Below are positions 14,623 through 44,059 of a stretch of 64,000 nt of DNA, piece after piece (the first letter of the stretch is position 1; every line of letters begins with the position of its first letter). Origin of the DNA: Chloroflexota bacterium (GTDB lineage: Bacteria > Chloroflexota > Anaerolineae > Anaerolineales > UBA4823); assembly GCA_040752025.1 (NCBI GenBank), contig JBFMFR010000002.1:34232-98231 (forward strand), read 5' to 3'. The notes under the pieces are model-generated. The model did not search any database, was not told where the DNA came from, and saw only the letters and a program-made list of their open reading frames with translations. A program made the position numbers and the translations under genes.

Positions 14623-15648
14623 ATGGCGATATACCAGGCATTGGACGCCCTCCCTCTAGATGAGATCGAGCGCCTGCTCAGCCAGGCAGCCCGGCTCGGG
14701 CTGGAACAGTATCCCATCGATGAAAGACTGTCCCTGACGCCGCTCCGCCACAACGAAAACGCCACCTTCCGCGTGGAGGCGCAGGGCCAGCCGCGCTACC
14801 TGCTGCGCCTGCACTACCCCCGCACGTCCGCCCTGGACTTCACCCACGGCGACCTGGTCCTGATCGAGTCAGAGCTGGCCTGGCTGGAAGCCCTCGGCCG
14901 GGAGACGAAGCTGGCGCTGCCCAAACCGCTGCGCGCGCGTAACGGCCGGCTGGCCGTGTCAGTGGAGATAGCAGAGGCTGGCCTCAGCCTGCCGTGCTCG
15001 CTGCTGCACTGGGTGGCCGGGCAGCCTTACACCCGCGACCTGGAAAGCGAGTCCACCGCCCGCAGCCTGGGAGACACCATCGCCCGCCTGCACGAACACG
15101 GCAGCCGCTGGCAGCCGCCGCCGGGCTTCAAACGCACTCGGCGCGACGCCGCCTACTTCCAGGAAATGCTGGAGAACCTGCGCCGGGTTGCCGCCCAGTC
15201 GCCTATCCAGGCATCCGATCTGGAGATTTTCAGCCAGTCCGTATCCATCCTCGTGCAAGAGATGGCTCAACTGCCCGAGATCGCCCCGTTCTACGGGCTG
15301 ATCCACGCCGATTTACACAAAGGCAACCTGCTGCTGCACGCCGGCCAGGTGCGCCCGATCGATTTCTCCTTCTGCTCTTTCGGGCATTTCACCTTCGATT
15401 TGGCTATCGCCCTGTCAGATATGCGCCCCGAACTGCGCCAGGCGGCACTGGAGAGCTACCAGGCCGTGCGCCCGCTGCCGGAAAACTACGCCCGCCAGAT
15501 CGAAGGCTTCTTCGTCGGCAGCATGCTGGGCACCATCTACTTCATCGCCAGCCGGCCCGTAGAGCAGGAGTGGGTCGGCCGCCGTGTACCGCAAATCGCC
15601 GAAGATTACGCCCGCAAGTATAACCAGGGCATCCCCTTCTGGTTTTAG
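14623..15648 (+). CDS. APH/ChoK-family phosphotransferase
   Basis: Catalytic loop HADLHKGNLL and IDFS(F) metal-binding motif, 341 aa. Confidence 0.75.
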   Translation: MAIYQALDALPLDEIERLLSQAARLGLEQYPIDERLSLTPLRHNENATFRVEAQGQPRYLLRLHYPRTSALDFTHGDLVLIESELAWLEALGRETKLALPKPLRARNGRLAVSVEIAEAGLSLPCSLLHWVAGQPYTRDLESESTARSLGDTIARLHEHGSRWQPPPGFKRTRRDAAYFQEMLENLRRVAAQSPIQASDLEIFSQSVSILVQEMAQLPEIAPFYGLIHADLHKGNLLLHAGQVRPIDFSFCSFGHFTFDLAIALSDMRPELRQAALESYQAVRPLPENYARQIEGFFVGSMLGTIYFIASRPVEQEWVGRRVPQIAEDYARKYNQGIPFWF

Positions 15649-15654
15649 ATCAAG

Positions 15655-16863
15655 ATGGAGGTTTTCTTGAACACTTCGGATGACTTTCGCTTAACCGCAG
15701 TGCACCCGCACGAGCACCTCCAGGCAGTGGCGCAGATCACCTCGGACGCCTTTGCCAACGGGCAGTACGTGGAAGAAATCGCCGCCCAATACATCGGCAA
15801 CAGCCATTACGATTGGGATGTCTCGCGGCTGGTCTGGCATAAGGGGCAGTTAGTCCACCACTGGGGGGTGTGGGGCTATCCCATGCGCCTGGATGGCGTG
15901 TTGCTGAAAGTTGCCGGAGTCGGCGCCGTCACCACCCTGCCGGATTACCGCCAGCGCGGCCTGATGGCCCGCGCTGTCCTGGACTCTTTGCGGGGCATGC
16001 GTGAGAACGGCTACGACCTGAGCATCCTGCGCGGGCGGCATTACGTCAAATTCGGCTACGCCCGCGCCTGGAACTACGTCACCTACCGTTTGAAAGCGGA
16101 GGAACTGCCCGAGCTGCCCGCCCCGCCGCCCTATGAACTGCTCGGGCCGGAGCGCATGGCGGAGATCGAAGCCTGCTATAACCAGCACTACCAGGCCTAC
16201 AGCGGCGTAGCCGTGCGCCCAACCTACCGCATGCTGCAGGCCGGGGATATGAACGCTTACGGCTGGCAGGATGCAGATGGCCAGCTTGCCGGCTACATGC
16301 GCGCTGTGCCCACCGATGACAAAAAGACACTGCAATGCCTGGAGGCCACCGGCGATGCGCAGCAGGGCCTGGCGGTGCTGGGCGAGCTGTTCAAAGCAGG
16401 CGCATACGAAACCCTGGCCTTCTTTACCCTGCCGCACCAGCACCCCATCCTGCAGTGGCTCCGCCGGGGGGCTTGCGTGGTAGAAGACCGCTACTTCCAC
16501 AACAGCGGCTGGCGCGTGCGCATCGTCGACCTGGCCAGCGCCCTGCACAAGCTGCGCCCCCGCCTGGAGGCGCGTTTGCAGCGCTCTTGGCTGGCGGGTT
16601 GGCATGGCAGCCTGCTCCTGGATGCTGGCGAGCAGCAGGCCACCCTGCAAATCAAGGGAGACAAAGTGCAGGTGCTGGAGGCTGCCGAGAGCGAACACGC
16701 CATCCACGGTGGGGCCGAGATCGGGCGCCTGCTGATCGGCTCAGACCAGCCGGAAGAAGTGCTGGCCCAGGCGCAAATGTGCTGCACCGGGTTGGGCGCC
16801 GAGCTGGCCTGCGCCCTCTTCCCCAACCTGCACCCGGTGATGAGCCAGTGGGATGAGTATTAG
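15655..16863 (+). CDS. Eis-like GNAT N-acetyltransferase (GNAT plus SCP2-like C-terminal part)
   Basis: 402 aa. GNAT acetyl-CoA motif RQRGLMARAV and an Eis-family layout. Confidence 0.65.
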   Translation: MEVFLNTSDDFRLTAVHPHEHLQAVAQITSDAFANGQYVEEIAAQYIGNSHYDWDVSRLVWHKGQLVHHWGVWGYPMRLDGVLLKVAGVGAVTTLPDYRQRGLMARAVLDSLRGMRENGYDLSILRGRHYVKFGYARAWNYVTYRLKAEELPELPAPPPYELLGPERMAEIEACYNQHYQAYSGVAVRPTYRMLQAGDMNAYGWQDADGQLAGYMRAVPTDDKKTLQCLEATGDAQQGLAVLGELFKAGAYETLAFFTLPHQHPILQWLRRGACVVEDRYFHNSGWRVRIVDLASALHKLRPRLEARLQRSWLAGWHGSLLLDAGEQQATLQIKGDKVQVLEAAESEHAIHGGAEIGRLLIGSDQPEEVLAQAQMCCTGLGAELACALFPNLHPVMSQWDEY

Positions 16864-17557: not shown

Positions 17558-19321
17558 TCAGGAACGGCGCAGGTAAGCCACCAGCACCACCGCCGCCGCC
17601 GCCAGCAGCACCAGCAGCAGCGTGACGCCGCAGCACAGGCCGGAGAACAGCATCAGGCGGGCGGTAGAAGTGTTCGCTGGTGTGGGGGTTGGCGTAGGGG
17701 TGGCGCTTGGCAGCGGCGTGATCGTAGGCCTGGGCTTTTCCTGCGTGCCCACCACCACGCTGAAGAGCGAGCCGCTTTCAGGCGTATCGTTGCCCCGCAC
17801 TCTCGCCGACCACTGCCCCGCCGCGGGGTTCTCGATCAACACCAGTTGCACGTTCTCATCCTTCTTGATGCTGACCTCGGACGAACTCTGGTCCAGCACC
17901 CGGCCAGTCGGGTCGAGGATTTCCAGGTCCAGGTCGCCCACCAGGTAGGTCAGTGTCAGGCTGAGTGAGGCGGTGTTCTCGAGCACTTCGAAAGTGCCCG
18001 CCTCGGCGGTCTGGCCCTTGAACACCCGGCTGGTGAAGCTCCGCACGTTCTCGGAGATCAGCCCCTGGCGGCAGGCGACGAAGAATGAAACCAGCTCCTG
18101 CCCGGAGCGGGCGAAGACATACTCTCCCTGGGTGTCGTCGGCCAGACCACGCAGCAGTTCCGCGTCTACATCCGTCTCCTGGCTGCCAAAGCCCACGCTG
18201 CACACCCGCGTCTTGAGCTGGTTGGCCTGGGGCGGGATTTGCTGGCGAATCTGCTCGGCGGTCAGCCCGGTGTTGGTCTGCCCATCGCTGAGCAGGATGA
18301 TGGCTGCTGGCTGGCCGGAGCGCAGGTTGGCGCGCAGTTCGTCCAGGGCCAGGGTCAGCCCGGCGCCCATGTTGGTGGCGTCCAGCGGCTGCAAGGCATC
18401 GATCTGCTGCTCTAACTGGGTGTAATCCTCAGTGAGAGACTGGCGGTTAGCGCCCTGCGTGGCGAAAGTCACCAGCCCGACCCGCGTCTGCCGGCCGGAA
18501 GCCAGCGCGTCCAGGCGGGAGAGATCCAGCATGGTCAGGGCTGACTGTTTGGCCAGGTCCAACCGGCTGGGGTAGCCCAGCTCCTTGGCGCGTTTGTCCA
18601 GATCCTCCTGAACCTGGTAATAGTTCTCGTTTTGGAGCAGCTCAGAATACTGCTTGGAGACCTCAGCATACCCCAGGGCCTCACGCGCCTGCTGGTAAGC
18701 CTGGTAGCGCTCGTCTCGGCTGGTTTTGAGATCCTGGTAAGCGCTGTTCGACAGGAAACCCAGCGCATTTTGAACGGCAGCGCGCAATTGGGGAGTGACG
18801 CCCACGCTCTGGCAGGCCGAATTCAGGATTTTGTCGGCATCCTCCAGGCTGTCCGCCGAGACCAGCGAATAAGCCCAGCTCTCGTTACAACCGGCGTCTT
18901 TGAGCTGCGTCTGAATCGTGCTGCGAATTTCATAGCTGTAGCCGTAACCGTTGGCGTTGAGCCAATCTTCAACGGCCAGGTTGGCTTGTTCGTACTGGCC
19001 GCGGGCCGCAGCTACCTGGGGGTCCTTTTCGATCTCTGCCATGTGCTCGGTCAGGCGTTTGTATTCCGGCGAGTTCTCGATCGCCTGGATACGGTCGCGC
19101 AGTTCGGCCAGGTCGGCGGGCAAATCGTCGGGCAGGACGATCGTGCCCATGCTGCCGGAAATATCGATGACCAACTCGATCTGTGGATTTAGAACCTCTG
19201 TCTGCAAACTGGGGAGATGAGAGCGCCCAGCGGGAGGGTGCTCATAGGGGATACCTCCCAGGCCGGAAAAAGCCAGGAACCAACCCAGCACGAAGAACCA
19301 ACGCAGCGCAGCCTTTGACAT
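17558..19321 (-). CDS. Membrane-anchored VWA-domain protein with large insertion after the MIDAS motif
   Basis: DISGS MIDAS (aa 53-57), RVGLVTF (aa 280-286) and LLSDGQTN. N-terminal signal/TM, PTPTPTP linker and a C-terminal TM. Confidence 0.75.
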   Translation of the reverse strand: MSKAALRWFFVLGWFLAFSGLGGIPYEHPPAGRSHLPSLQTEVLNPQIELVIDISGSMGTIVLPDDLPADLAELRDRIQAIENSPEYKRLTEHMAEIEKDPQVAAARGQYEQANLAVEDWLNANGYGYSYEIRSTIQTQLKDAGCNESWAYSLVSADSLEDADKILNSACQSVGVTPQLRAAVQNALGFLSNSAYQDLKTSRDERYQAYQQAREALGYAEVSKQYSELLQNENYYQVQEDLDKRAKELGYPSRLDLAKQSALTMLDLSRLDALASGRQTRVGLVTFATQGANRQSLTEDYTQLEQQIDALQPLDATNMGAGLTLALDELRANLRSGQPAAIILLSDGQTNTGLTAEQIRQQIPPQANQLKTRVCSVGFGSQETDVDAELLRGLADDTQGEYVFARSGQELVSFFVACRQGLISENVRSFTSRVFKGQTAEAGTFEVLENTASLSLTLTYLVGDLDLEILDPTGRVLDQSSSEVSIKKDENVQLVLIENPAAGQWSARVRGNDTPESGSLFSVVVGTQEKPRPTITPLPSATPTPTPTPANTSTARLMLFSGLCCGVTLLLVLLAAAAVVLVAYLRRS

Positions 19322-34171: not shown

Positions 34172-34212
34172 AGACTCCCGGAGTTTTGGAAACTCCAGGA
34201 GTCTTTTATTTT
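34172..34212. terminator. Bidirectional intrinsic terminator (OsmC-like gene / glgC)
   Basis: 15-bp stem AGACTCCCGGAGTTT/AAACTCCAGGAGTCT (one mismatch), loop TGG. Flanked by AAAAAT upstream and TTTATTTT downstream. Confidence 0.7.
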
Positions 34213-35470
34213 ACTCCGGCCCGATGTGCGTGCCCGGGTACAGGATCGTGCTCTTAGGGACGACCACGATGCCATCCTGCACCACCCAGTTGGTCTCGTC
34301 GATCTCGGCGCCGCGTGGGAAGGGCTTGATCACCACGCCTTCACCCAGGCGCACGTTCTTGTCCAGGATGGCGCCTTCGATGTGGCAGTTGGGGCCAACG
34401 CCCAGCGGAATGCCGCCTGGCGGGGGCAGGTCGGGATCATCGTAATAGTCTGCACCCATCATGATCGAGTTCTTCATTACCACGCCCTGCTCGATGTGAC
34501 TGCGCAGGCCGACCACGCAGTCGGTCAGTTTGGCTTTGTGCACCTGGCTGCCTTCGGCCAGCAGCACGTTGTGCAGCGTGGCCCCATCCACTACGCTGCC
34601 GGGCAGGAAGCGCGGGTGGGTGTAGATCGGGCGCACCGGGTCGTAAAAGTTGAAGGGCGATTCGGGGCGCGCCAGCAGCAGGTTGGTCTCGTAGAAGGAA
34701 CGGATTGTCCCGATGTCCTCCCAGTAGCCGCCGAACTCGTAGCCATAGATGGCGTGGGTCGCCAGGGCAGTGGGGATGATCTGCCGTCCGAAGTCTTCGT
34801 ACGCTGTGTCCTCCAGCATGTCGATCAGCACCTGCGTGTTGAAGACGTAGATGCCCATCGAGCCCAGGTAGGGCATTTCGGCATCGTCGCGGCTGACGAA
34901 CTGCGCCAGCACTTCGGGGTCGCGCGGCTTTTCGACGAAGGCCGAGACGCGCAAATCGGCGTCGCGCTTGAGCAGGCCCAACCGGGGAGCCGCCTCCGCC
35001 GCCACCGGCTGCATCGCCACGGTGATGTCGGCCTGGCGCTCCCAGTGGAAGCGCACCAGTTCAGCGTAATCCATGCGGTAAAGGTGGTCGCCAGCCAGGA
35101 TCAGCACGTACTCGGCCTTGGTGACCTTGATCTCGAACAACTGCTTGCGCACCGCGTCGGCGGTGCCCATGTACCAGTCCGAGCTGCGCGGCGTCTGCTC
35201 GGCCGCCAGGATCTGCACCCAGCCCTGGTGGAAGGCGTCGAAGTTGTAGGTCTGGGTGATGTGGCGGTGCAGCGAGACCGAGTTGTACTGGGTCAGGATG
35301 GCGATGCGCTGGATGTCGGAGTTGATGCAGTTGCTGATCGGCACGTCGATCAGGCGATATTTGCCGGCGATGGGCACGGCCGGCTTGGAGCGCTGCTTGG
35401 TGAGCGGGTACAGGCGCTTGCCCACCCCGCCGCCCATGATCACAGCCAGGACGCTTTCGAGAGATGGCAT
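34211..35470 (-). CDS. glgC: Glucose-1-phosphate adenylyltransferase
   Basis: N-terminal GGGVGKRLYPLT, the KPAVPIAGKYRLID motif and C-terminal left-handed beta-helix repeats. GGAGG lies upstream. Confidence 0.9.
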   Translation of the reverse strand: MPSLESVLAVIMGGGVGKRLYPLTKQRSKPAVPIAGKYRLIDVPISNCINSDIQRIAILTQYNSVSLHRHITQTYNFDAFHQGWVQILAAEQTPRSSDWYMGTADAVRKQLFEIKVTKAEYVLILAGDHLYRMDYAELVRFHWERQADITVAMQPVAAEAAPRLGLLKRDADLRVSAFVEKPRDPEVLAQFVSRDDAEMPYLGSMGIYVFNTQVLIDMLEDTAYEDFGRQIIPTALATHAIYGYEFGGYWEDIGTIRSFYETNLLLARPESPFNFYDPVRPIYTHPRFLPGSVVDGATLHNVLLAEGSQVHKAKLTDCVVGLRSHIEQGVVMKNSIMMGADYYDDPDLPPPGGIPLGVGPNCHIEGAILDKNVRLGEGVVIKPFPRGAEIDETNWVVQDGIVVVPKSTILYPGTHIGPE

Positions 35471-35613
35471 GGAAGACCTCCTTCAAAATGAATGCGGAAT
35501 TGCTCTTATTATACTTGGGAGTCGTTGGGCAGGGTGAGAGGAAGATGCAGTTGGTCACGGATTTGCGCGGATTTGCACGGATGTGGCTTTTGGCTTGTAT
35601 GCGGCCGGGAAAA

Positions 35614-35651
35614 CAGCCACGAATTTCACGAATTTTTCGAATTGGGCTTTG
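35614..35651 (+). repeat. Dispersed 38-bp repeat (copy 1), CAGCCrCGAATTTCACGAATTTTTCGAATTGGGCTTTG
   Basis: 37/38 identical to 37928-37965. Confidence 0.9.
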
Positions 35652-35727
35652 TGGGCGCCCCAGGGTGCGATGCACGTGTTCTTCGTGCGTTGCACCTGGA
35701 AATGTTATAATCAACGTAGCAGCACAC

Positions 35728-35859
35728 GTGCACCCCGAACTGGGCACGATCTGCTGGCCCAATGGGGCTGACCTGGATGCAGATGTGCTCTATGCTATCG
35801 TCGCTGGAGAACCGGCGCCGTCCTTCGATGAGAACCTGGCCCGTTACGCCGCCGATTAG
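35728..35859 (+). pseudogene. C-terminal relic of a DUF2442-like small protein
   Basis: The peptide HPELGTICWPNGADLDADVLYAIV... matches the conserved C-terminal pattern of DUF2442 proteins. The N-terminal half is replaced by repeat DNA. Confidence 0.35.
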
Positions 35860-35911: not shown

Positions 35912-37885
35912 ATGCCACTATCAACCGGACAAATCCTGGAGAACCGCTACCGCATCGTCAAGCTGCTCGGGCAGGGCGGCTTTGGGGCGGTGTACCGCGC
36001 CTGGGACACCAAGCTGAACGGCCCGTGCGCCGTCAAGGAGAGCTTCGAGAGTTCGGCGGCGGCGCAGAAGCAGTTCGAGCGCGAGGCCTCGCTGCTCTTC
36101 AACCTGCGCCATCCCAACCTGCCGCGCGTTTTCGACTCGTTCATTTTGCCCGGGCAGGGCCTGTACCTGGTGATGGACTACATCGAAGGCCAGGATTTGC
36201 AGGAACTGCTCGAGCAGGCCGGCGGGCCGCTGCCCGAGGCGCAGGTGCTGCCCTGGATCGGGCAGGTTTGCGCTGCTTTGAGCTACCTGCACAGCCAAAC
36301 CCCGCCGGTGGTGCACCGCGACCTGAAGCCGGCCAACATCCGCATCACCCCGCAGGGGCAGGCTATGCTGGTGGACTTCGGCATCGCCAAGCTGTACGAC
36401 CCCAACCTGAAGACCACCGCCGGGGCGCGCGCCGTCACGCCGGGCTTCTCGCCGCCGGAGCAGTACGGGCGCGGCAGCACCGACCTGCGCTCGGATGTCT
36501 ACAGCCTGGGGGCCACGCTCTACGCCCTGCTGACCGGTCAGGCGCCGCCGGACAGCGTGGACGTGCTCACCGGCAACCAGCCCGCCCCGCACGCAGCCCG
36601 GGCGCTCAACCCGGGCGTTTCGGCGGGGGTCAGCGCCGCCATCGAGAAGGCCATGCGCCTGGAGCGGGCGGAGCGCTGGCCGAGCGTGGCGGCCTTGTGG
36701 CAGGCTTTGCAGGCCGGCGGGCCTCCAGCCCCCACCCCGCCCATCCCCCTGCGAGGGACAGCAGGGATGCAATCGCCCTCCCAGATGCAGAAAGGGGGCA
36801 CGCAGGTGGTGGGGTATGCCGGAGCGGACGGGCAGGCGGGCCGGGCCCGTCTGCCCCGGCCTGCGCAAGGTATCCCATGGAGTTGGGTGGCTGCGGCGCT
36901 GGGGCTGGTGATTTTAGCTTTGGGGGTGGCCCTGGTTCCCTCGCTGTTGGGCGGGGATAGCACCGCAGACAGCCAGGCGACGCAGACCGCCCTGGCCTGG
37001 CGGGCGGAGACAGCCGTGGCAGCAGCTACTCAGACCACCCGGCTGCCGGCGACCGATCCGCCCAAGGACATCGCGACTGCGAAGCCGCCTACGGCGACGC
37101 GTGCAGAGCCGACGCACACCTTGCCACCCACGGCGACACGTGCAGAGCCAACGCGGACTCTGCCGCCCACGCTTACACCCACCCCGGCCGCGCCAGAGGG
37201 CATGGTTCTGATCCCGGCTGGGGAGTTCCAGATGGGCAGCAAAAATGGGGGCGGCGATGAGAAGCCGGTGCACACAGTCTATCTGGATGCCTATTACATC
37301 GATGTCCACGAAGTGACCAACGCTCGCTACGCTGAGTGCGTGGCAGCCGGGGAGTGCACGCAGCCAGGTAGTGGCAGTAATTATGGCAATGCAGCCTATG
37401 CAGATCACCCGGTGGTCAATGTGGACTGGAACCAGGCGCGGGCCTACTGCCAGTGGCGCGGCGGGCGGCTGCCGACGGAGGCAGAGTGGGAGAAAGCGGC
37501 GCGGGGCGGGTTGGAAGGGATGGATTACCCCTGGGGGGATGAGACTCCGATCTGTGAAAAAGGAGCGAAGAACGGTGCGCAGTTCTCAGGTTGTGATGGG
37601 GACACAGTTCCAGTGGGTAGTTTTGCACCCAACGGCTACGGGCTGTACGACATGGCCGGCAACGTGTGGGAGTGGGTGCAGGATTGGTACCTGGAGAGCT
37701 TTTATGGCAGTTCGCCGCGTGACAACCCGACTGGCCCGGTCTCGGGCGAGTACCGCGTGGTGCGGGGCGGGGGCTGGGGCGGCAGTGGCGCTTTGCTCTC
37801 TGCCAACCGTGGCTGGAGCGCCCCTTCCAGCCGTAGCGGCAACCTGGGGTTTCGCTGCGTTGCGACGGTGAAGTCGCCTGAATAA
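35912..37885 (+). CDS. Ser/Thr protein kinase fused via TM and PT-rich linker to an FGE-sulfatase (SUMF1-like) domain
   Basis: Kinase motifs GQGGFGAVY, AVK, HRDLKPANI, DFG and SPPE. One TM segment. C-terminal FGE motifs (YIDVHEVTN, RLPTEAEWEKAARGG, GNVWEW, RGG.W). Confidence 0.9.
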   Translation: MPLSTGQILENRYRIVKLLGQGGFGAVYRAWDTKLNGPCAVKESFESSAAAQKQFEREASLLFNLRHPNLPRVFDSFILPGQGLYLVMDYIEGQDLQELLEQAGGPLPEAQVLPWIGQVCAALSYLHSQTPPVVHRDLKPANIRITPQGQAMLVDFGIAKLYDPNLKTTAGARAVTPGFSPPEQYGRGSTDLRSDVYSLGATLYALLTGQAPPDSVDVLTGNQPAPHAARALNPGVSAGVSAAIEKAMRLERAERWPSVAALWQALQAGGPPAPTPPIPLRGTAGMQSPSQMQKGGTQVVGYAGADGQAGRARLPRPAQGIPWSWVAAALGLVILALGVALVPSLLGGDSTADSQATQTALAWRAETAVAAATQTTRLPATDPPKDIATAKPPTATRAEPTHTLPPTATRAEPTRTLPPTLTPTPAAPEGMVLIPAGEFQMGSKNGGGDEKPVHTVYLDAYYIDVHEVTNARYAECVAAGECTQPGSGSNYGNAAYADHPVVNVDWNQARAYCQWRGGRLPTEAEWEKAARGGLEGMDYPWGDETPICEKGAKNGAQFSGCDGDTVPVGSFAPNGYGLYDMAGNVWEWVQDWYLESFYGSSPRDNPTGPVSGEYRVVRGGGWGGSGALLSANRGWSAPSSRSGNLGFRCVATVKSPE

Positions 37886-37927
37886 TTGTCTTGCACTGAG
37901 CGAGGTGACAAGACCTGCTGTTCCATA

Positions 37928-37965
37928 CAGCCGCGAATTTCACGAATTTTTCGAATTGGGCTTTG
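37928..37965 (+). repeat. Dispersed 38-bp repeat (copy 2)
   Basis: 37/38 identical to 35614-35651. Confidence 0.9.
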
Positions 37966-38000
37966 CAGGCGTTCGAGTGCGAGGTGCGTTTGTGACTGAA

Positions 38001-38033
38001 AGAAATCGAATTTTTGACAAAAATTCGATTTCT
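38001..38033. repeat. 33-bp perfect palindrome AGAAATCGAATTTTTG-A-CAAAAATTCGATTTCT
   Basis: 16-bp arms. The same arm sequence recurs at 43064-43110. Confidence 0.9.
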
Positions 38034-38047
38034 GGGCTGCCTGGGGC

Positions 38048-38356
38048 TTGCACCGTTTGGGCGAAGGTGTTTGTGTTGGGCGAAAGCCGCCTGCGGCCCT
38101 GGATCTGGAGGGCAGGCACATCGGCTACGCCATCCGCCCGGTGCGATGGCGGCGGGGCTACGGCACGCATATCCTGGCGCTGACCCTGGAGAAGGCCCGG
38201 GAGCGCGGCCTGCGGCGCGTGCTGGTGACCTGCGACAAGGAAAACACCGCCTCGGCGCGCATCATCGAAAAGAACGGCGGCCGGCTGGCGGGAGAGGCGC
38301 TTGCGGAGCGCAGCGGCAAACCGGTCTTGCGGTATTGGATCGAGTTGGGTGAATAG
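38048..38356 (+). pseudogene. 5'-truncated GNAT acetyltransferase (C-terminal about 90 aa only)
   Basis: HIGYAIRPVRWRRGYGTHILALTLEKARERGLRRVLVTCDKENTASARIIEKNGG is the acetyl-CoA-binding half of a GNAT of about 170 aa. The N-terminal half is absent and repeats lie upstream. Confidence 0.6.
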
Positions 38357-38358
38357 CC

Positions 38359-38456
38359 AGACCTGACAGGTTTTTTTTGAGCATCTATGTGGTTTGAGTA
38401 ACCAGGCTTGCATAGAGGCATGGCAGGCAGGGATGCAATGGAAACCTGTCAGGTCT
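38359..38456. repeat. Perfect 15-bp inverted repeats bounding a 68-bp segment (MITE-like or long stem-loop)
   Basis: AGACCTGACAGGTTT (38359-38373) and AAACCTGTCAGGTCT (38442-38456). Confidence 0.8.
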
Positions 38457-38591
38457 TTACGGCAGGCGGGGCGCAACCGTAGGGGCGGGTCTGCCCGTTC
38501 TGGTAAATCTACCTGCCCTACAGCCATCCTGCCTGGCCTGCGGCGCGCTTCGATCAACTCGACCCGCCCTTTGCCTTGCCCCGCCTCGCCA

Positions 38592-38885
38592 GCGCACCCG
38601 GCCAGGAATGTAATTCCCGGCCTGCCACCCAAAACGCGCTAAAAGCACGTTGGGGAAACGGCTCGGGGGAGTGCGCTTTGAGCGCACTTGGAGTACCAGG
38701 CTGGGGTTTTGAATCCCAGCCGTTGTTGGCCAGCGTGTCACCGGCGTGGCGTGTGCGCCCACCCGGCCAGGAATGCAATTCCCGGCCTGCCACCCAAAAC
38801 GCGCTAAAAGCGCGTTGGGGAAACGGCTCGGGGGAGTGCGCTTTGAGCGCACTTTGGGTATCAGGCTGGGATTTTGAATCCCAGC
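38592..38885 (+). repeat. Tandem 165-bp repeat (about 1.8 copies), each unit containing four hairpins
   Basis: Unit starts at 38596 and 38761, with about 7 substitutions over about 125 aligned nt by hand alignment. Hairpins: GGCCAGGAAT/ATTCCCGGCC, AACGCGCT/AGCGCGTT, GTGCGCT/AGCGCAC and GCTGGGAT/ATCCCAGC. Confidence 0.85.
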
Positions 38886-38958: not shown

Positions 38959-40452
38959 ATGACATTCGAGAAGGGTCATGCGTTGTTGGTTGGGGTGGGC
39001 AGCCACCCAAATGCGCGCCAATTGGATGTGTTGGAGACAGTAGCTGACGTTCAAGCGGTGGCGCAGGCGCTGGGCGATGAGCACCTGTGCGGCTATCCGT
39101 CCGGGCAGGTGCGCGTGCTGCACGACCAGTCCGCCACGCGCCAGGGCATCCTGGCCGGGCTGGATGAGCTGGCGGGGCGCGCCGGGCCAGACGACACAGT
39201 TTTTATTTTCTACAGCGGGCACGGCGATTACGGCACGGACGGGGCTTATTACCTGGTCAGTCACGATGCGCGTATCGAAAATGAGAAAGTTGCCAGCGGT
39301 ACGGGCGTCAGCCAGGCCGAACTGTTGGAGAAAATAGGCAAGATCCAGGCGCAGCGCCTCCTGCTGCTCTTCAACGCCTGCCATTCCGGGCAGGTCACGC
39401 CGGCCACGTTGGGCGCCGCGGCTGCCCCAGCCCTGGGCGCAAGGCCTCTGCCAGGCGCCGCCGCCGAGGCCCTGCTGGGCAGCGGCAGCGGGCGGGTGGT
39501 GATCACCGCCTGCCGCCAGGAGCAGTTATCCTACGTCGGCGACGGCCCGCAGACGCTCTTCGCCCAGGCGCTGCTGGATGCCCTGCACGGGCGCACCACC
39601 AGCGGGCGCGGCGGCTTCATCTCCGTTTTCGATCTGTACACCGCCCTGTACGACGCGCTCAGCGAGAAAGCCCCGCAGGAGCCGGAACTGACCGTGATCA
39701 AGGGCGTCGGCCCGTTCGCCGTGGCCCTGTACAACGGCGCCAGCCAGACCAACCTGGGCCTGGCCGAGGCGGCCCACGAGCCGCCTGAATACACCGCCGT
39801 GCGCCGCGTGCGCCCGGAGAAGGCCCGCTACCAGTTCCAGCAGCACAGCGCCGTGCACATCGGCAGCATCAGCGGGGTCAGCGGCGGGCAGATCAACATC
39901 GCCGGCCGGGACGTTAATACGCGGGTCGAGACGGGCGGGGGCGCTTACGTGGGCGGCAACGTGGACACCGGCGGGGGCAGCTTCGTGGGGCGCGATAAGC
40001 TGGTTTTCGGCGATGAGGTGCGCGGTGATAAGGTGCTGGGGGATAAGGTAACTGGGAACAAGGTAACTGGGGACCAGGTTGCCGGGGATAAAACTACGGT
40101 GGGAGACATCTCTGGCAGCACGGGGATTGCCATCGGGCGCAACGCCCAGGCGTATGTTTCGATGGGCGTGAGCGCGGCGGAGCTGGAGCGCCTGTTCCAG
40201 CCGCTGCTGGCGGCGGTCGCCCAGGCCCCGGCGCAGGCGCGCCCCGAGGCGGCGCGCATGGCGGAGCAGTTGAAGCAAGAGGCAGCTAAGGGCAAGCAGG
40301 CCGATGACAAGCTTATGGCCCGTTTGATCGAAGGCCTGGTGGACCTCGTGCCCGGGGCGGTCAGCGCCGTGGTGAGCGCCTTCGCTTCGCCGCTGCTGGC
40401 CGGCATCGCCGGCCCGGTGACGCAGTACGTTTTGTCGAAATGGCGCAAGTGA
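38959..40452 (+). CDS. Caspase-like (peptidase C14, orthocaspase) protein with C-terminal 5-aa repeats and helical tail
   Basis: His/Cys dyad contexts FIFYSGHGDY and LLLFNACHSGQ. Five 15-nt repeats (GDKVx) at 40024-40098. ATG 38959 has GGGAGG upstream; the tracked start at 38887 lies in the repeat. Confidence 0.8.
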   Translation: MTFEKGHALLVGVGSHPNARQLDVLETVADVQAVAQALGDEHLCGYPSGQVRVLHDQSATRQGILAGLDELAGRAGPDDTVFIFYSGHGDYGTDGAYYLVSHDARIENEKVASGTGVSQAELLEKIGKIQAQRLLLLFNACHSGQVTPATLGAAAAPALGARPLPGAAAEALLGSGSGRVVITACRQEQLSYVGDGPQTLFAQALLDALHGRTTSGRGGFISVFDLYTALYDALSEKAPQEPELTVIKGVGPFAVALYNGASQTNLGLAEAAHEPPEYTAVRRVRPEKARYQFQQHSAVHIGSISGVSGGQINIAGRDVNTRVETGGGAYVGGNVDTGGGSFVGRDKLVFGDEVRGDKVLGDKVTGNKVTGDQVAGDKTTVGDISGSTGIAIGRNAQAYVSMGVSAAELERLFQPLLAAVAQAPAQARPEAARMAEQLKQEAAKGKQADDKLMARLIEGLVDLVPGAVSAVVSAFASPLLAGIAGPVTQYVLSKWRK

Positions 40453-41336
40453 CGCCCGTGGATGCCGCCGCCATCACCCAGGCTTACCAGCGCCTGATCG
40501 AGAACTTCCTGGGCTGGGCGCAGGCTGAGGAAAACATCCGCGCCGCGGTGGTGATCGGCTCGCGGGCGCGCACGGACCACCCCGCCGATGCCTTCTCCGA
40601 CCTGGACGTGATCCTGGTGGTGCAGGATATGCAGCCGCTGGTGGAGGACTCCGCCTGGGTGGGCTGCGCCGGCCGGCCCTGGCTGACCTTCATCGAGCGC
40701 ACCGGCGACGGGAGAAGCTGGGAGCGGCGCGTCCTGTACGAAGGCGGGCTGGACGTGGATTTCGCCTTCGTGCCCCTGGAACAGGCGCAAATGCTGTGCG
40801 CCGCTGGCCCGTCTGCGCAGATGCCTGACGTCATGCAGCGCGGCTACCATGTCTTGCTGGATAAGGACGGCCTGCTGGCGGGCCTGCCGCCCTCGCCCGG
40901 CAGCGGGGCGCCGTTCGAGCCGGTGAGCCAGGCGGAGTTCCTCAACCTGGTCAACGATTTCTGGTACCACACCGCCTGGACCGCCAAGCACCTGCGGCGC
41001 GGCGAGCTGTGGTGGGGCAAGGGCTGCTGCGATGATTATCTCAAAGGGCTGCTGCGGCGCATGCTGGAGTGGCACGCCCAGGCCACCCGCCCGGGAACCG
41101 ACACCTGGCTGCGCGGGCGTTTTTTGGAAGAGTGGGCCGACCCGCGCGCTGTGGCCGCCCTGCCCCAGGCCTACGCCCACTACCAGGCGCAGGACATCTG
41201 GCGAGCCCTGTTCGTCACCATGGACCTGTTCGCCTGGTTGGAGCAAGAGACCGCCCAGCACCTGGGTTTCCCCCGCCCATTGGAAGGCGAAGCGCAGGCC
41301 GCCGCGCTGACCCGCCAGTTATTCGACGGCCGGTAA
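40440..41336 (+). CDS. ANT(6)/AadK-family nucleotidyltransferase (streptomycin adenylyltransferase-like fold)
   Basis: GSRARTDHPADAFSDLDVILVV NTase motif, VLLDKDG, EFLNLVNDFWYH..AKHLRRGEL and LLRRMLEWHA. Overlaps the caspase gene by 13 nt (4 nt if GTG 40449 is the start). Confidence 0.8.
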   Translation: MAQVTPVDAAAITQAYQRLIENFLGWAQAEENIRAAVVIGSRARTDHPADAFSDLDVILVVQDMQPLVEDSAWVGCAGRPWLTFIERTGDGRSWERRVLYEGGLDVDFAFVPLEQAQMLCAAGPSAQMPDVMQRGYHVLLDKDGLLAGLPPSPGSGAPFEPVSQAEFLNLVNDFWYHTAWTAKHLRRGELWWGKGCCDDYLKGLLRRMLEWHAQATRPGTDTWLRGRFLEEWADPRAVAALPQAYAHYQAQDIWRALFVTMDLFAWLEQETAQHLGFPRPLEGEAQAAALTRQLFDGR

Positions 41337-41338
41337 GC

Positions 41339-41556
41339 TGATTGACTGACAAATCTAACACGGAGATCACAGAGAAATCACGGAGTTCACAGAGTTTTGC
41401 CAAAAACTTCGTGTTCCTGGCGTTCTGCGCGGTGGAAAATAAAATCTGTCCACAAACACACATGGGGCACAAATTTCCGTTTCACCGGCGCTTCTTCTCC
41501 GTGCGCTCCGTGTTAAGTTGCAATTCAAGCGTTCTACATAATTTGTCAATCAATCA
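41339..41556. mobile_element. 218-bp MITE-like element with 16-bp TIRs and 11-bp flanking direct repeat
   Basis: TIRs are TGATTGACTGACAAAT (41339-41354) and ATTTGTCAATCAATCA (41541-41556), 15/16 complementary. Flanks are GGCCGGTAAGC at 41328-41338 and 41557-41567. Subterminal inverted repeats TAACACGGAG/CTCCGTGTTA. No ORF. Confidence 0.8.
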
Positions 41557-41616
41557 GGCCGGTAAGCATATTTGATTCTTCTCATATCTACGAAAATCGG
41601 TGTAATCTGCAGATCG

Positions 41617-41667: not shown

Positions 41668-42972
41668 TTATTCGATCGGCACGTAAATCGTCAGTTGCGA
41701 GCCCTCCACCCCGGGTTCGAAGTTCTCGTCATAGTACTCGAAGTCCGGGCCCTTGGCGGCCTTGTAGCCGGAGCCCGGCAGCCAGGTCTCGAAGGCGTAC
41801 TGGTAGGTCTCGTGGATGTTTTGCAGCGTGCAGGGGAAGACGGCGTACTTCTGCGCAGGGACTTCCCAGGTGGTCATGCCCTCGGGGATGGCCTCGGTGC
41901 TGGATACGGCAAAGCCCGCCATGTACTGGAAGGCGCCGCTCTCCTCCACCTGCCCGCAGATGCCGAAGGCGCCATCCACGATGTGTTTCACTTCGGGGAT
42001 GCGCGGGTTGAACTGCTGCCACAACTGGCCGATCTCGTCGTTCTCATTCTTGCCATGATAGAGCAGGCCGACGGCGGTAAAGGCTGGTCTTTCAACGATT
42101 TGAGGTTGCATCGCTTTTTTCTCCTGGTTTGTTGAAATGAAGAAGGGGGTAGGTTTCTTTTGCACGGGGAGCTGCACTTCGGTGACGGGCGCTGCCTCGC
42201 CAGCCTCGTCGGCCGGGCGCTGCAGGTACACCTCCCGGTTGGGGCCCAGGCTGCGGTAGCCGGAGGTTTCGACCCAGCTCAGCAGGGCGTTGTAGGCCTC
42301 AGGCAGGCGGTTGTACGACCCGCTGTGGATGGCGCAGGCCATGTTTTCCGCCCCGGGCAGCTCGTGGACGGCCACGCGCCGGCTGCCTGGCAGGCGCTGG
42401 GACAGCGGCACAGCGGCTTCTACGTCCAGGGTCTGCTCGCTGAACTCCGAGTCGTAATAGACCGCCAGGGTCGCCAGGCTGGCCTCCAGGGTCAGGTCCC
42501 GGCTTCGCAGGTAGGCATCCAGCTCGGAGAACAGCGGCGGCAGCTCGTGCATGCCGTGGATCACGGCGCGCACGCCGGCCACGCGCTGGGCGGGCACGCT
42601 CTTGAGCACCACTTCGTAGGCCGGCAGGCAGCCCTCCTGCTCGATCTGCCGCAACCGTTCGGCGACGCGCTCCAGGCGCTCCTGTTCGGCCTGCACCTGG
42701 CGTTCCAGCTCGGCCTGCTTCATGCGCAGCATGCCGCGCAGCTCGGCGGCTGGCAGGTCCTGGCGCAGCAGTTGCTGGATCTGCTCCAGCGAGAAGCCCA
42801 GGTCCTTGAGCGCCAGGATGCGGTTCAGGCGCTGCAACTGCCCGGCGCTGTAGTAGCGGTAGCCGGTGAAGCGGTCGATCCAGGCCGGGCGCAGCAGGCC
42901 CAGCTCGCCGTAGTGCCGCAGGGCCTTGATCGAGACCTGCGCCAGCTTGGAGAAGTCGCCAATCTTGAACAT
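41668..42972 (-). CDS. MerR-family regulator with two tandem GyrI-like effector-binding domains
   Basis: MerR HTH MFKIGDFSKLAQVSIKALRHYGELGLL..YRYY and a coiled-coil. This is followed by a BmrR-like GyrI domain and then a second GyrI-like domain starting MQPQIVERPAF. Confidence 0.8.
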   Translation of the reverse strand: MFKIGDFSKLAQVSIKALRHYGELGLLRPAWIDRFTGYRYYSAGQLQRLNRILALKDLGFSLEQIQQLLRQDLPAAELRGMLRMKQAELERQVQAEQERLERVAERLRQIEQEGCLPAYEVVLKSVPAQRVAGVRAVIHGMHELPPLFSELDAYLRSRDLTLEASLATLAVYYDSEFSEQTLDVEAAVPLSQRLPGSRRVAVHELPGAENMACAIHSGSYNRLPEAYNALLSWVETSGYRSLGPNREVYLQRPADEAGEAAPVTEVQLPVQKKPTPFFISTNQEKKAMQPQIVERPAFTAVGLLYHGKNENDEIGQLWQQFNPRIPEVKHIVDGAFGICGQVEESGAFQYMAGFAVSSTEAIPEGMTTWEVPAQKYAVFPCTLQNIHETYQYAFETWLPGSGYKAAKGPDFEYYDENFEPGVEGSQLTIYVPIE

Positions 42973-43063: not shown

Positions 43064-43110
43064 AGAAATCGAATTTTGCCGCCAAGGCGGTGTCTAAAAT
43101 TCGATTTCTA
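43064..43110. repeat. Palindromic repeat AGAAATCGAATTTT ... AAAATTCGATTTCT with nested GC hairpin
   Basis: 14-bp arms identical to the arms at 38001-38033. The element overlaps the DUF1848 stop codon. Confidence 0.85.
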
Positions 43111-44019
43111 TCCAGTTTCTTCCCAATGCAGCAGGGCCGGCCGGTTGGGGTCGTGGCGGGCGTGGTTGGCGCGGGCGCGCTCGAAGCTGCTGGTGGCGTA
43201 GCAGTACGGGCAGCCGAACAGGCAGGTGTCGTACACGCCGATGTCTTTGCTGATCACGCAGCCGCAGGCCTTGCGCTGGCCGGGATCCTTGGTGTGCGAT
43301 ACCTCCAGGCCGAAGACTTCCTGGATGTACTCGTCATCCACGCACTTGCCCGGCTGGATGCCGTATTGCTCCAGGGGCAGTTCGGAGGCGCAACTGGTGA
43401 TTTGCATGCCGTTAGCCCGCGCCGCCGAAGCCAGGCCGCCCAGCAGACCGCCGAACCAGTCGTCCTGGGGACTATAGGGCAGCAGCGCCGCGCCCTGGTC
43501 CGCCAGGGCCTGCATGCGTTTCTTGATCTTGTCGTAGGGGGTCAGCAGGCTGATCACCGAGCGCCGCGTGGCGCCGCGCAGCGCCCGGGCCAGGCGCTGG
43601 TAAGTCTCCAGGTGGAAATCCGGTGGGGTGATTTCAGTGAAGACCAGCGGGTCGTAGCGCCAGATCACGCGTTCGGGGCCGATGCGCTCCGCCAGCTCAT
43701 GGAAAGCTTGCAGCCGGGTCTTGAGCGGGGAGCGCATCTCGAGCGGGCGCGGGTAGTTGAGCAGCGTGTATTGGAAGTAATAGCGGTAGCCGCGCGCTTC
43801 CAGGCCGGCCAGGTGCGGGAAGAGCGGGCGCGGGTCGCGCGTCCAGAAGACGATCACGTCCACATCCTCGGGCGCCAGCGAGACGCGCAGGACTTGCCGG
43901 GGGTTGAAGGGGTGGGGTACTTCGCAGGCACCGGCCTGAATGCGCTTGATGAACCACTCGGCGTAGAAGGCAGGGATATCGGTGCGGCGGCTGGCGCTGA
44001 TGATCATGCCCGCAATCAT
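43108..44019 (-). CDS. DUF1848-family protein
   Basis: MIISASRRTDIPAFYAEWF N-terminus and C-terminal Cys cluster CGCV..C..GCPYCYA. The start could be 44019 or 44007. The tracked 44058 would overlap the divergent promoter. Confidence 0.65.
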   Translation of the reverse strand: MIAGMIISASRRTDIPAFYAEWFIKRIQAGACEVPHPFNPRQVLRVSLAPEDVDVIVFWTRDPRPLFPHLAGLEARGYRYYFQYTLLNYPRPLEMRSPLKTRLQAFHELAERIGPERVIWRYDPLVFTEITPPDFHLETYQRLARALRGATRRSVISLLTPYDKIKKRMQALADQGAALLPYSPQDDWFGGLLGGLASAARANGMQITSCASELPLEQYGIQPGKCVDDEYIQEVFGLEVSHTKDPGQRKACGCVISKDIGVYDTCLFGCPYCYATSSFERARANHARHDPNRPALLHWEETG

Positions 44020-44031
44020 ACCGCAAAACCC

Positions 44032-44059
44032 TTGACAAAAGGGTAAATCTGTGTACAAT
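44032..44059 (+). promoter_or_regulatory. Sigma70-like promoter TTGACA-16-TACAAT for the GntR operon
   Basis: TTGACA at 44032-44037 and TACAAT at 44054-44059. The -10 is the first unit of the TACAAT array. Confidence 0.5.

Follow-up and report, generated by a model that had tools for sequence, protein, structure and literature searches.

The stretch of DNA considered here, a 64-kb segment of contig JBFMFR010000002.1 from a Chloroflexota bacterium that is called the window throughout, carries on its forward strand a gene for a caspase-like protease (an orthocaspase) followed closely by a gene for a nucleotidyltransferase (NTase) of the ANT(6) type (Table 1). An earlier note on this DNA, drawn up from the letters alone, had proposed that the two genes are coupled in a conflict module and lie together in a repeat-bounded islet. 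Comparison with the related loci L082, L099/L101 and L100 points to a different arrangement, in which a small syntenic block has the NTase as a resident gene and the caspase as a variable insert in the spacer upstream of the NTase.

Table 1. Position of the caspase and NTase genes, their domains and the features that surround them (window coordinates)
Feature	Position	Strand	Remarks
GlgC-type NTP transferase, left anchor of the syntenic block	34211..35470	-	Pfam; L101 orthologue 81% identical
Ser/Thr kinase fused to an FGE-sulfatase (FGS) domain	35912..37885	+	Pfam
GNAT acetyltransferase remnant, 5'-truncated, C-terminal half only	38048..38356	+	Pfam Acetyltransf_3, profile positions 81-137 of 138
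Intergenic repeats	38359..38885	.	hairpin element 38359-38456 and 165-nt tandem duplication 38592-38885 (95% identical)
Orthocaspase gene	38959..40452	+	497 aa plus stop; GGGAGG Shine-Dalgarno sequence before the ATG
Caspase (C14) domain, residues 1-298	38959..39852	+	Pfam PF00656; confident AlphaFold2 model
Gly/Asp/Lys-rich linker, residues 299-402	39853..40164	+	predicted disordered, pLDDT ~30
C-terminal helical domain, residues 405-497	40171..40449	+	divergent, TCAD2 (Pfam PF19971)-like; pLDDT ~90, all helices
ANT(6)/PF04439-family NTase	40458..41336	+	292 aa from GTG 40458; other in-frame starts ATG 40440, GTG 40449
MITE-like insertion, 220 bp	41338..41557	.	terminal inverted repeats CTGATTGA(C/T)TGACAAAT
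MerR-GyrI-like regulator, convergent with the NTase	41668..42972	-	Pfam; 72% / 68.5% amino acid identity, same position, in L099/L101 / L100
DUF1848 protein	43108..44058	-	Pfam; L100 orthologue 70% identical, same position

The orthocaspase and the nucleotidyltransferase

The first gene encodes the protein that the earlier note had recognized by its C14 His and Cys contexts, and that assignment is borne out by matches to Pfam Peptidase_C14 (PF00656; E 1.9e-13) and to the PADLOC model 'caspase' (2e-21). Its ATG agrees with the starts of its homologues, all of which begin M-x-F-x-x-G-H-A-L. The catalytic residues His88 (39220-39222, in FIFYSGHGDY) and Cys141 (39379-39381, in LLLFNACHSGQ) are both in place and are invariant in an alignment of 34 homologues, and the protein is accordingly predicted to be an orthocaspase with an intact active site. 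AlphaFold2 models the caspase domain and the C-terminal tail with confidence and leaves the linker between them unmodelled. A Foldseek search with the model of the N-terminal domain returned 3BIJ, MALT1 and metacaspases as its top matches (E ~1e-9), and Pfam, the AlphaFold2 model and Foldseek agree on a caspase/hemoglobinase fold. The tail consists entirely of helices, as the earlier note had expected, at a predicted local distance difference test (pLDDT) score of about 90. The linker contains the five exact-period 15-nt units, at 40024-40098, that had been read as GDKVL/GDKVT/GNKVT/GDQVA/GDKTT; a listing of the units is free of indels, Tandem Repeats Finder reports period-15 arrays, and the number of GDKVx units differs between caspase homologues.

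The second gene likewise encodes what had been proposed, with all of the motifs quoted for an ANT(6)-type enzyme. Its product matches Pfam PF04439 with 163 bits (E 8e-48, profile positions 4-272 of 279). The protein structures 2pbe and 8vxb align to it at E ~1e-16, with the GSR motif, the DxD motif and a third Asp conserved in the active site, and its C-terminal helical, small-molecule-binding domain aligns with those of AadK and ANT(6)-Ib. It thus resembles the ANT(6) enzymes (AadK, 2PBE; ANT(6)-Ib, 8VXB; aadS) in its full-length PF04439 match, in its three active-site elements and in its helical C-terminal domain, and is unlike them in scoring 73-115 bits against cut-offs of 420-450 in the NCBIfam resistance equivalog models (ANT_6_aadS, 114.6 versus 450; ANT_6, 72.9 versus 420). 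It has more than 1,900 homologues, usually annotated as aminoglycoside 6-adenylyltransferase, and belongs to a broad environmental Chloroflexota clade. PADLOC matches to PDC-S09 and PDC-M05A, at 15-26 bits and confined to the N-terminal motif, were set aside as generic similarity of the NTase fold.

Both genes are under purifying selection: against the L082 orthologues, the ratio of nonsynonymous to synonymous substitution rates (dN/dS) is 0.19 for the caspase gene (dS 0.30) and also 0.19 for the NTase gene (dS 0.28).

The caspase gene ends with a TGA at 40450-40452, and the earlier note had the NTase gene begin ahead of it, overlapping by 13 nt or 4 nt. The in-frame codons ATG 40440 and GTG 40449 would create overlaps, and neither is backed by the called start of any orthologue. 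The NTase genes of L082, L100 and L101 all open with ATG-GA(C/T) where the window has GTG 40458, which makes an overlap doubtful and leaves a gap between the caspase stop and the conserved NTase start of 5 nt in the window and in L082, and of 8 nt in L101. Because the spacing is tight and no terminator is predicted between the two genes, their co-transcription is plausible.

Synteny and distribution of the pair

The pair was found in two related lineages only, each time within a block with the conserved order GlgC / GNAT / caspase / NTase / MerR-GyrI / DUF1848. It is present in L082, at 92% nucleotide identity to the window, and in L099/L101, where the caspase (P0022) and the NTase are 47% and 63% identical to those of the window; the pairing is therefore not unique to this genome. 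Nucleotide identity between the window and L101 is 75% in the 3' end of the GNAT gene, 67% in the caspase gene, 71% in the NTase gene and 78% in the MerR-GyrI gene on the reverse strand, and at the protein level the caspase diverges faster than its neighbours in the block (47% versus 63-81% identity). In both L100 and L101, a GNAT gene is in synteny with the 3' end of the window's GNAT remnant. A run of N within the L101 GNAT gene (1864-1962) leaves the intactness of that gene unreadable.

The most informative relative is L100, which is syntenic with the window and has no caspase gene: the stop codon of its GNAT gene is followed after 34 nt by the NTase start, and then by the MerR-GyrI and DUF1848 genes. 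L100 is the sister of the caspase-bearing L101 in 200/200 bootstraps, with NTases that are 73% identical and MerR proteins that are 76% identical. A single recent insertion of the caspase gene was rejected on this ground. It follows from the sister relationship that either an ancestral caspase gene was cleanly lost in L100 or the gene entered the same spacer twice, and under either history the NTase was kept in L100 without a caspase.

Outside this block the two families were not found together. A survey of 79 caspase-homologue loci in GTDB species representatives, made with tblastn, which picks up NTases down to 36% identity, found a PF04439 homologue within 8 kb at none of them (0/79). Conversely, among about 12 distinct NTase homologues surveyed together with their surrounding genes, none outside the syntenic lineage lies beside a caspase gene, and the neighbours are varied. 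Caspases of the same clade occur without an NTase, and genomic context shifts inside one clade. The closest caspases of known context, P0002 and P0003 (59% identity), have as their next genes a TPR gene and a pyruvate:ferredoxin-oxidoreductase (POR) gene. The neighbourhood survey that the earlier note had called for thus yielded recurrence of the pair in L082 and L099/L101, and no co-occurrence beyond one syntenic block. Comparison thus gives no support to the proposed conflict module, in view of the empty survey of caspase loci, the lack of a caspase at NTase loci outside the one lineage, the caspase-free NTase of L100 and the different neighbours of P0002 and P0003. Nor does the locus look like an islet that arrived as a unit, as the NTase gene and both flanks are syntenic in relatives free of the repeats. 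Judged by gene order, the adjacency of caspase and NTase appears to follow general synteny, with no sign of a selected partnership.

The caspase family, its tail and its neighbours

About 500 homologues have the full caspase-linker-tail architecture. Chloroflexota predominate among the carriers (Caldilineaceae, Ardenticatenaceae, Chloroflexaceae, Roseiflexus and Anaerolineae), and some homologues are found in cyanobacteria and Thiodictyon. The window protein has no direct match to the Pfam TCAD2 model, its C-terminal region has no match in NCBIfam, and a fold search of the PDB with the tail model gave nothing below E 0.6. Several homologues bear Pfam TCAD2 in the tail (P0112 and P0040, for example), and alignment of the window-type tail profile with the TCAD2-type tail profile by hhalign gave a probability of 97.7% and an E of 2.4e-12. 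This profile match, of the kind that the earlier note had suggested looking for, marks the tail as a divergent, TCAD2-like domain.

A search of 1.8 billion representatives for the tail returned 395 proteins, and those that were scanned have a caspase, CHAT or TIR domain at the N-terminus. P0259, P0242, P0315 and P0366, for instance, carry the same helical domain C-terminally and TIR or CHAT N-terminally. Many of the tail matches are short, at 120-280 aa, and are probably 5'-truncated gene calls. A second TCAD2-like tail was sought in the window with a hidden Markov model run against the six-frame translation, and there was none.

The commonest conserved partner of the caspase family is a STAND-like NTPase, encoded immediately 3' and on the same strand at 13 of the 79 caspase loci. 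These NTPases are large proteins that combine AAA_16/nSTAND with helical repeats (L016, 9442-14583; L024, 9452-11737; and 11 more loci), and the adjacency is seen in Chloroflexaceae, Roseiflexus and Oscillochloris. Other recurrent neighbours are Ser/Thr kinases (12 loci), FGS-domain proteins (12) and MoxR-type ATPases (5), and at one Caldilineaceae locus AAA_5, CHAT and NACHT genes lie upstream of the caspase gene.

To our knowledge, the caspase family with the tail that it shares with TIR and CHAT proteins has never been studied experimentally, and a search of the literature on TCAD2 or on orthocaspase-NTase pairing found nothing relevant. The name TCAD2, in Pfam 'Ternary complex associated domain 2', is taken to refer to the conflict systems of Kaur and colleagues; a search of the text of that paper and of one supplementary file did not find the term.

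Comparison with known systems

Kaur et al. 2020 described effector-associated domains, in which a constant tail is attached to alternative death or signalling domains (PMC7159879), and the window-type tail, which occurs on caspase, CHAT and TIR proteins, therefore matches that pattern. The resemblance to the conflict effectors of that study extends to an N-terminal caspase with a His/Cys dyad, to an all-helical C-terminus homologous to TCAD2, to a tail common to caspase, CHAT and TIR, to an occurrence chiefly in lineages that are filamentous or multicellular (Chloroflexota, cyanobacteria and Thiodictyon), and to the MoxR, CHAT, STAND or FGS genes that adjoin some homologues of the window caspase. 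Unlike those effectors, the window protein falls below the Pfam TCAD2 model, and neither a MoxR-vWA-VMAP core nor a STAND NTPase is encoded in the 64-kb window. The caspase belongs to a family of conflict effectors that is already known computationally.

The EACC1-caspase system ('System 4' of Kaur 2020; Evans et al. 2025 preprint, PMC12642450) likewise includes a protease whose C-terminal region varies, and NF047832, 'caspase, EACC1-associated type', is the nearest NCBIfam model of the window caspase domain. Assignment to this system was rejected, as the match to NF047832, at 95.3 bits, stays below the cut-off of 140 and no EACC1 gene lies upstream. A small EACC1 gene was looked for 5' of the caspase gene, where the ORFs of the window have no NCBIfam match and the upstream gene of L101 is GNAT.

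Protease-gated modules pair a protease with MBL, alpha/beta-hydrolase, Pepco or EACC1, and their co-occurrence and co-phylogeny are conserved across phyla (PMC12642450). The window resembles such modules in that a caspase-like protease gene adjoins a second enzyme gene on the same strand, and is unlike them in that the pairing is limited to one syntenic lineage and is missing in one of its members.

Interpretation

We consider it likely that caspase and NTase are two functionally independent neighbours, the caspase gene being a dispensable single-gene cassette in the spacer between GNAT and NTase. On this account the NTase would be resident in a small conserved chromosomal block, together with GNAT, the convergent MerR-GyrI-like regulator and DUF1848, and it would most likely adenylylate a small molecule, aminoglycoside-like or some other hydroxylated compound, with the chemistry taking place at a Pol-beta-type GSR...DxD...D site. 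In some members of the lineage, the caspase cassette would exactly occupy the short spacer between GNAT and NTase. Judging from its family, the caspase may serve as an effector of NTP-dependent conflict systems of the abortive-infection or programmed-death type. Its helical tail, common to TIR and CHAT effectors, would then act as an adaptor that connects the caspase with a switch or sensor encoded at another locus, possibly a STAND NTPase or else a MoxR-vWA system; cleavage of cellular or partner proteins would follow when the protease is triggered. Among the options raised in the earlier note, a resistance gene that had landed next to an orthocaspase comes closest, with the roles exchanged: it is the NTase that appears to be resident and the caspase that is the variable insert.

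Some observations pull the other way. The pair is adjacent at 5-8 nt in two lineages whose NTases are just 63% identical, and adjacency retained so tightly fits an operon and is compatible with acquired functional coupling. A partner sensor for the caspase (MoxR, vWA-MoxR, VMAP or STAND) was looked for in the 64-kb window and none was found. In addition, the homologue contexts on which independence is judged are limited in number and many of the contigs are short, and the sequencing runs that contain the window sequence are DNA runs only. One alternative is a lineage-specific protease-effector module, in which cleavage by the orthocaspase would license the co-transcribed NTase as a latent effector or signal generator. 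The same-strand juxtaposition persists in the window, L082 and L099/L101 without a predicted terminator, purifying selection acts on both genes at similar dS, protease-effector pairs are frequent in defence (PMC12642450), and the N-terminus of the NTase has weak PADLOC matches to candidate-defence NTase models. We nonetheless regard such a module as unlikely, given that the NTase family (>1,900 matches) is overwhelmingly solitary and of varied context, that L100 retains the NTase and no caspase, that the NTase is absent at the 79 caspase loci, and that the caspase-linked NTases, compared with that of L100, bear no extra N- or C-terminal extension (292-302 aa); the PADLOC matches, for their part, are confined to the generic NTase motif at 15-26 bits. 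Far less credible is a regulatory NTase that nucleotidylates the caspase or its tail and keeps the protease inactive, as an antitoxin-like or thresholding partner. Adjacency and probable co-transcription, and nothing else, speak for it, and it has to contend with same-clade caspases in contexts that lack any NTase, and with the character of the NTase itself, a full-length ANT(6)-type enzyme whose small-molecule-binding C-terminal domain aligns with AadK and ANT(6)-Ib. Capture of the resident NTase as an operonic partner of the inserted orthocaspase, whether as protease-licensed effector or as nucleotidylating regulator, is at best as improbable as the licensed module and perhaps somewhat more so; if it did occur, the window would hold a new protease-NTase module at an early stage of system assembly.

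The remaining alternative concerns the caspase rather than the pair, and although doubtful it stands ahead of those just discussed. The orthocaspase could have a housekeeping or developmental function in filamentous Chloroflexota, with the linker and tail used for localization or oligomerization, as might be expected of a family that is very widespread in Chloroflexota, is conserved in architecture and has many loci with no obvious defence partner, and of a gene set, in the window, amid chromosomal core. Presence and absence of the gene between close syntenic relatives, and a context that varies within one clade, argue against such a role, as do the tail common to TIR and CHAT proteins, the recurrence of STAND, MoxR and FGS neighbours, and an evolution faster than that of the neighbouring genes (47% versus 63-81% identity).

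If caspase and NTase are indeed independent neighbours, the locus would illustrate a conflict-type effector that acts as a single-ORF cassette, filling a 34-nt spacer of a chromosomal block that is conserved in its other genes, and being present or absent between close relatives. For annotation, this means that an 'aminoglycoside 6-adenylyltransferase' beside a caspase should not be taken as a defence partner, and that the caspase is suitably labelled a TCAD2-tailed orthocaspase. Independence of the two genes provides no new mechanism, and it is the caspase family with the tail shared by TIR and CHAT proteins that is still worth pursuing.

Flanking repeats, MITE and upstream insertions

The repeats and the truncated gene that the earlier note had placed to the left of the pair are indeed present, in the form of the GNAT remnant, a hairpin element and a 165-nt tandem duplication. 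The hairpin element, whose arms of 15 nt are perfect and enclose a loop of 68 nt, lies directly 3' of the GNAT stop codon, and because its depth in a sludge metagenome is several-fold that of its flanks it is taken to be a small multi-copy repeat. A gap of 39 nt, free of repeats, separates the end of the GNAT gene from the caspase start in L101, and the repeats of the window, which take up roughly 600 nt, are therefore attributed to later intergenic insertions. A compositional islet was considered and rejected, as the GC content of the pair, 65-72%, is that of the neighbouring genes.

On the right, the segment at 41338-41557 is a miniature inverted-repeat transposable element (MITE), as had been noticed at the pair's stop codon: it has terminal inverted repeats, it is multi-copy, it is flanked by a 9-bp target duplication, GCCGGTAAG (41329-41337 and 41558-41566), that includes the TAA stop codon of the NTase, and the site is empty in L082, a relative that is 92% identical. 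Its depth in the sludge metagenome is ~104 against ~11 for unique sequence, or about 10-fold (run X1); taken together, the MITE and the hairpin element stand at 5- to 10-fold the depth of unique sequence. The window itself has only one copy of the MITE.

Further upstream, the kinase-FGS gene lies between two direct repeats of 61 nt (35613-35673 and 37927-37987) that are 84% identical and share a 27-nt exact core. The segment is missing from the syntenic L101, where GNAT directly follows GlgC, and it looks like a separate insertion in the window lineage, one that probably caused the 5' truncation of GNAT. Because FGS domains recur near the caspase family and in the systems of Kaur et al., it is conceivable by analogy that the kinase-FGS protein is a partner of the caspase. 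A DUF2442 remnant (35728-35859, forward strand), consisting of the C-terminal third only and scoring 22.9 bits, just below the Pfam cut-off, is located between the kinase gene and the repeat to its left. The AT-rich spacer just 5' of the GNAT remnant contains a perfect 16-nt palindrome, AGAAATCGAATTTTTG/CAAAAATTCGATTTCT, at 38001-38033.

Setting of the window

Besides the pair, the 64-kb window is made up of chromosomal core, including genes for FtsK, a Clp ATPase, GlyRS, DnaG, GlgC and PepF (Pfam). The nearest relatives are metagenome-assembled genomes of Caldilineaceae, Ardenticatenaceae and Anaerolineae, and parts of the sequence occur in sludge metagenomes. Look-ups by exact sequence returned no record of the window's caspase or of its NTase. 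A vWA-domain protein of 587 aa with a weak PPC-domain match is encoded on the reverse strand at 17561-19321, some 20 kb from the caspase gene and without a MoxR ATPase neighbour, and is probably unrelated to the caspase. The window also encodes further small-molecule-modifying enzymes that may be compared with the GNAT-NTase-MerR/GyrI block: an APH-family phosphotransferase (14623-15645, forward strand) adjoins an Acetyltransf_9 (Eis-like) GNAT protein (15655-16860, forward strand).

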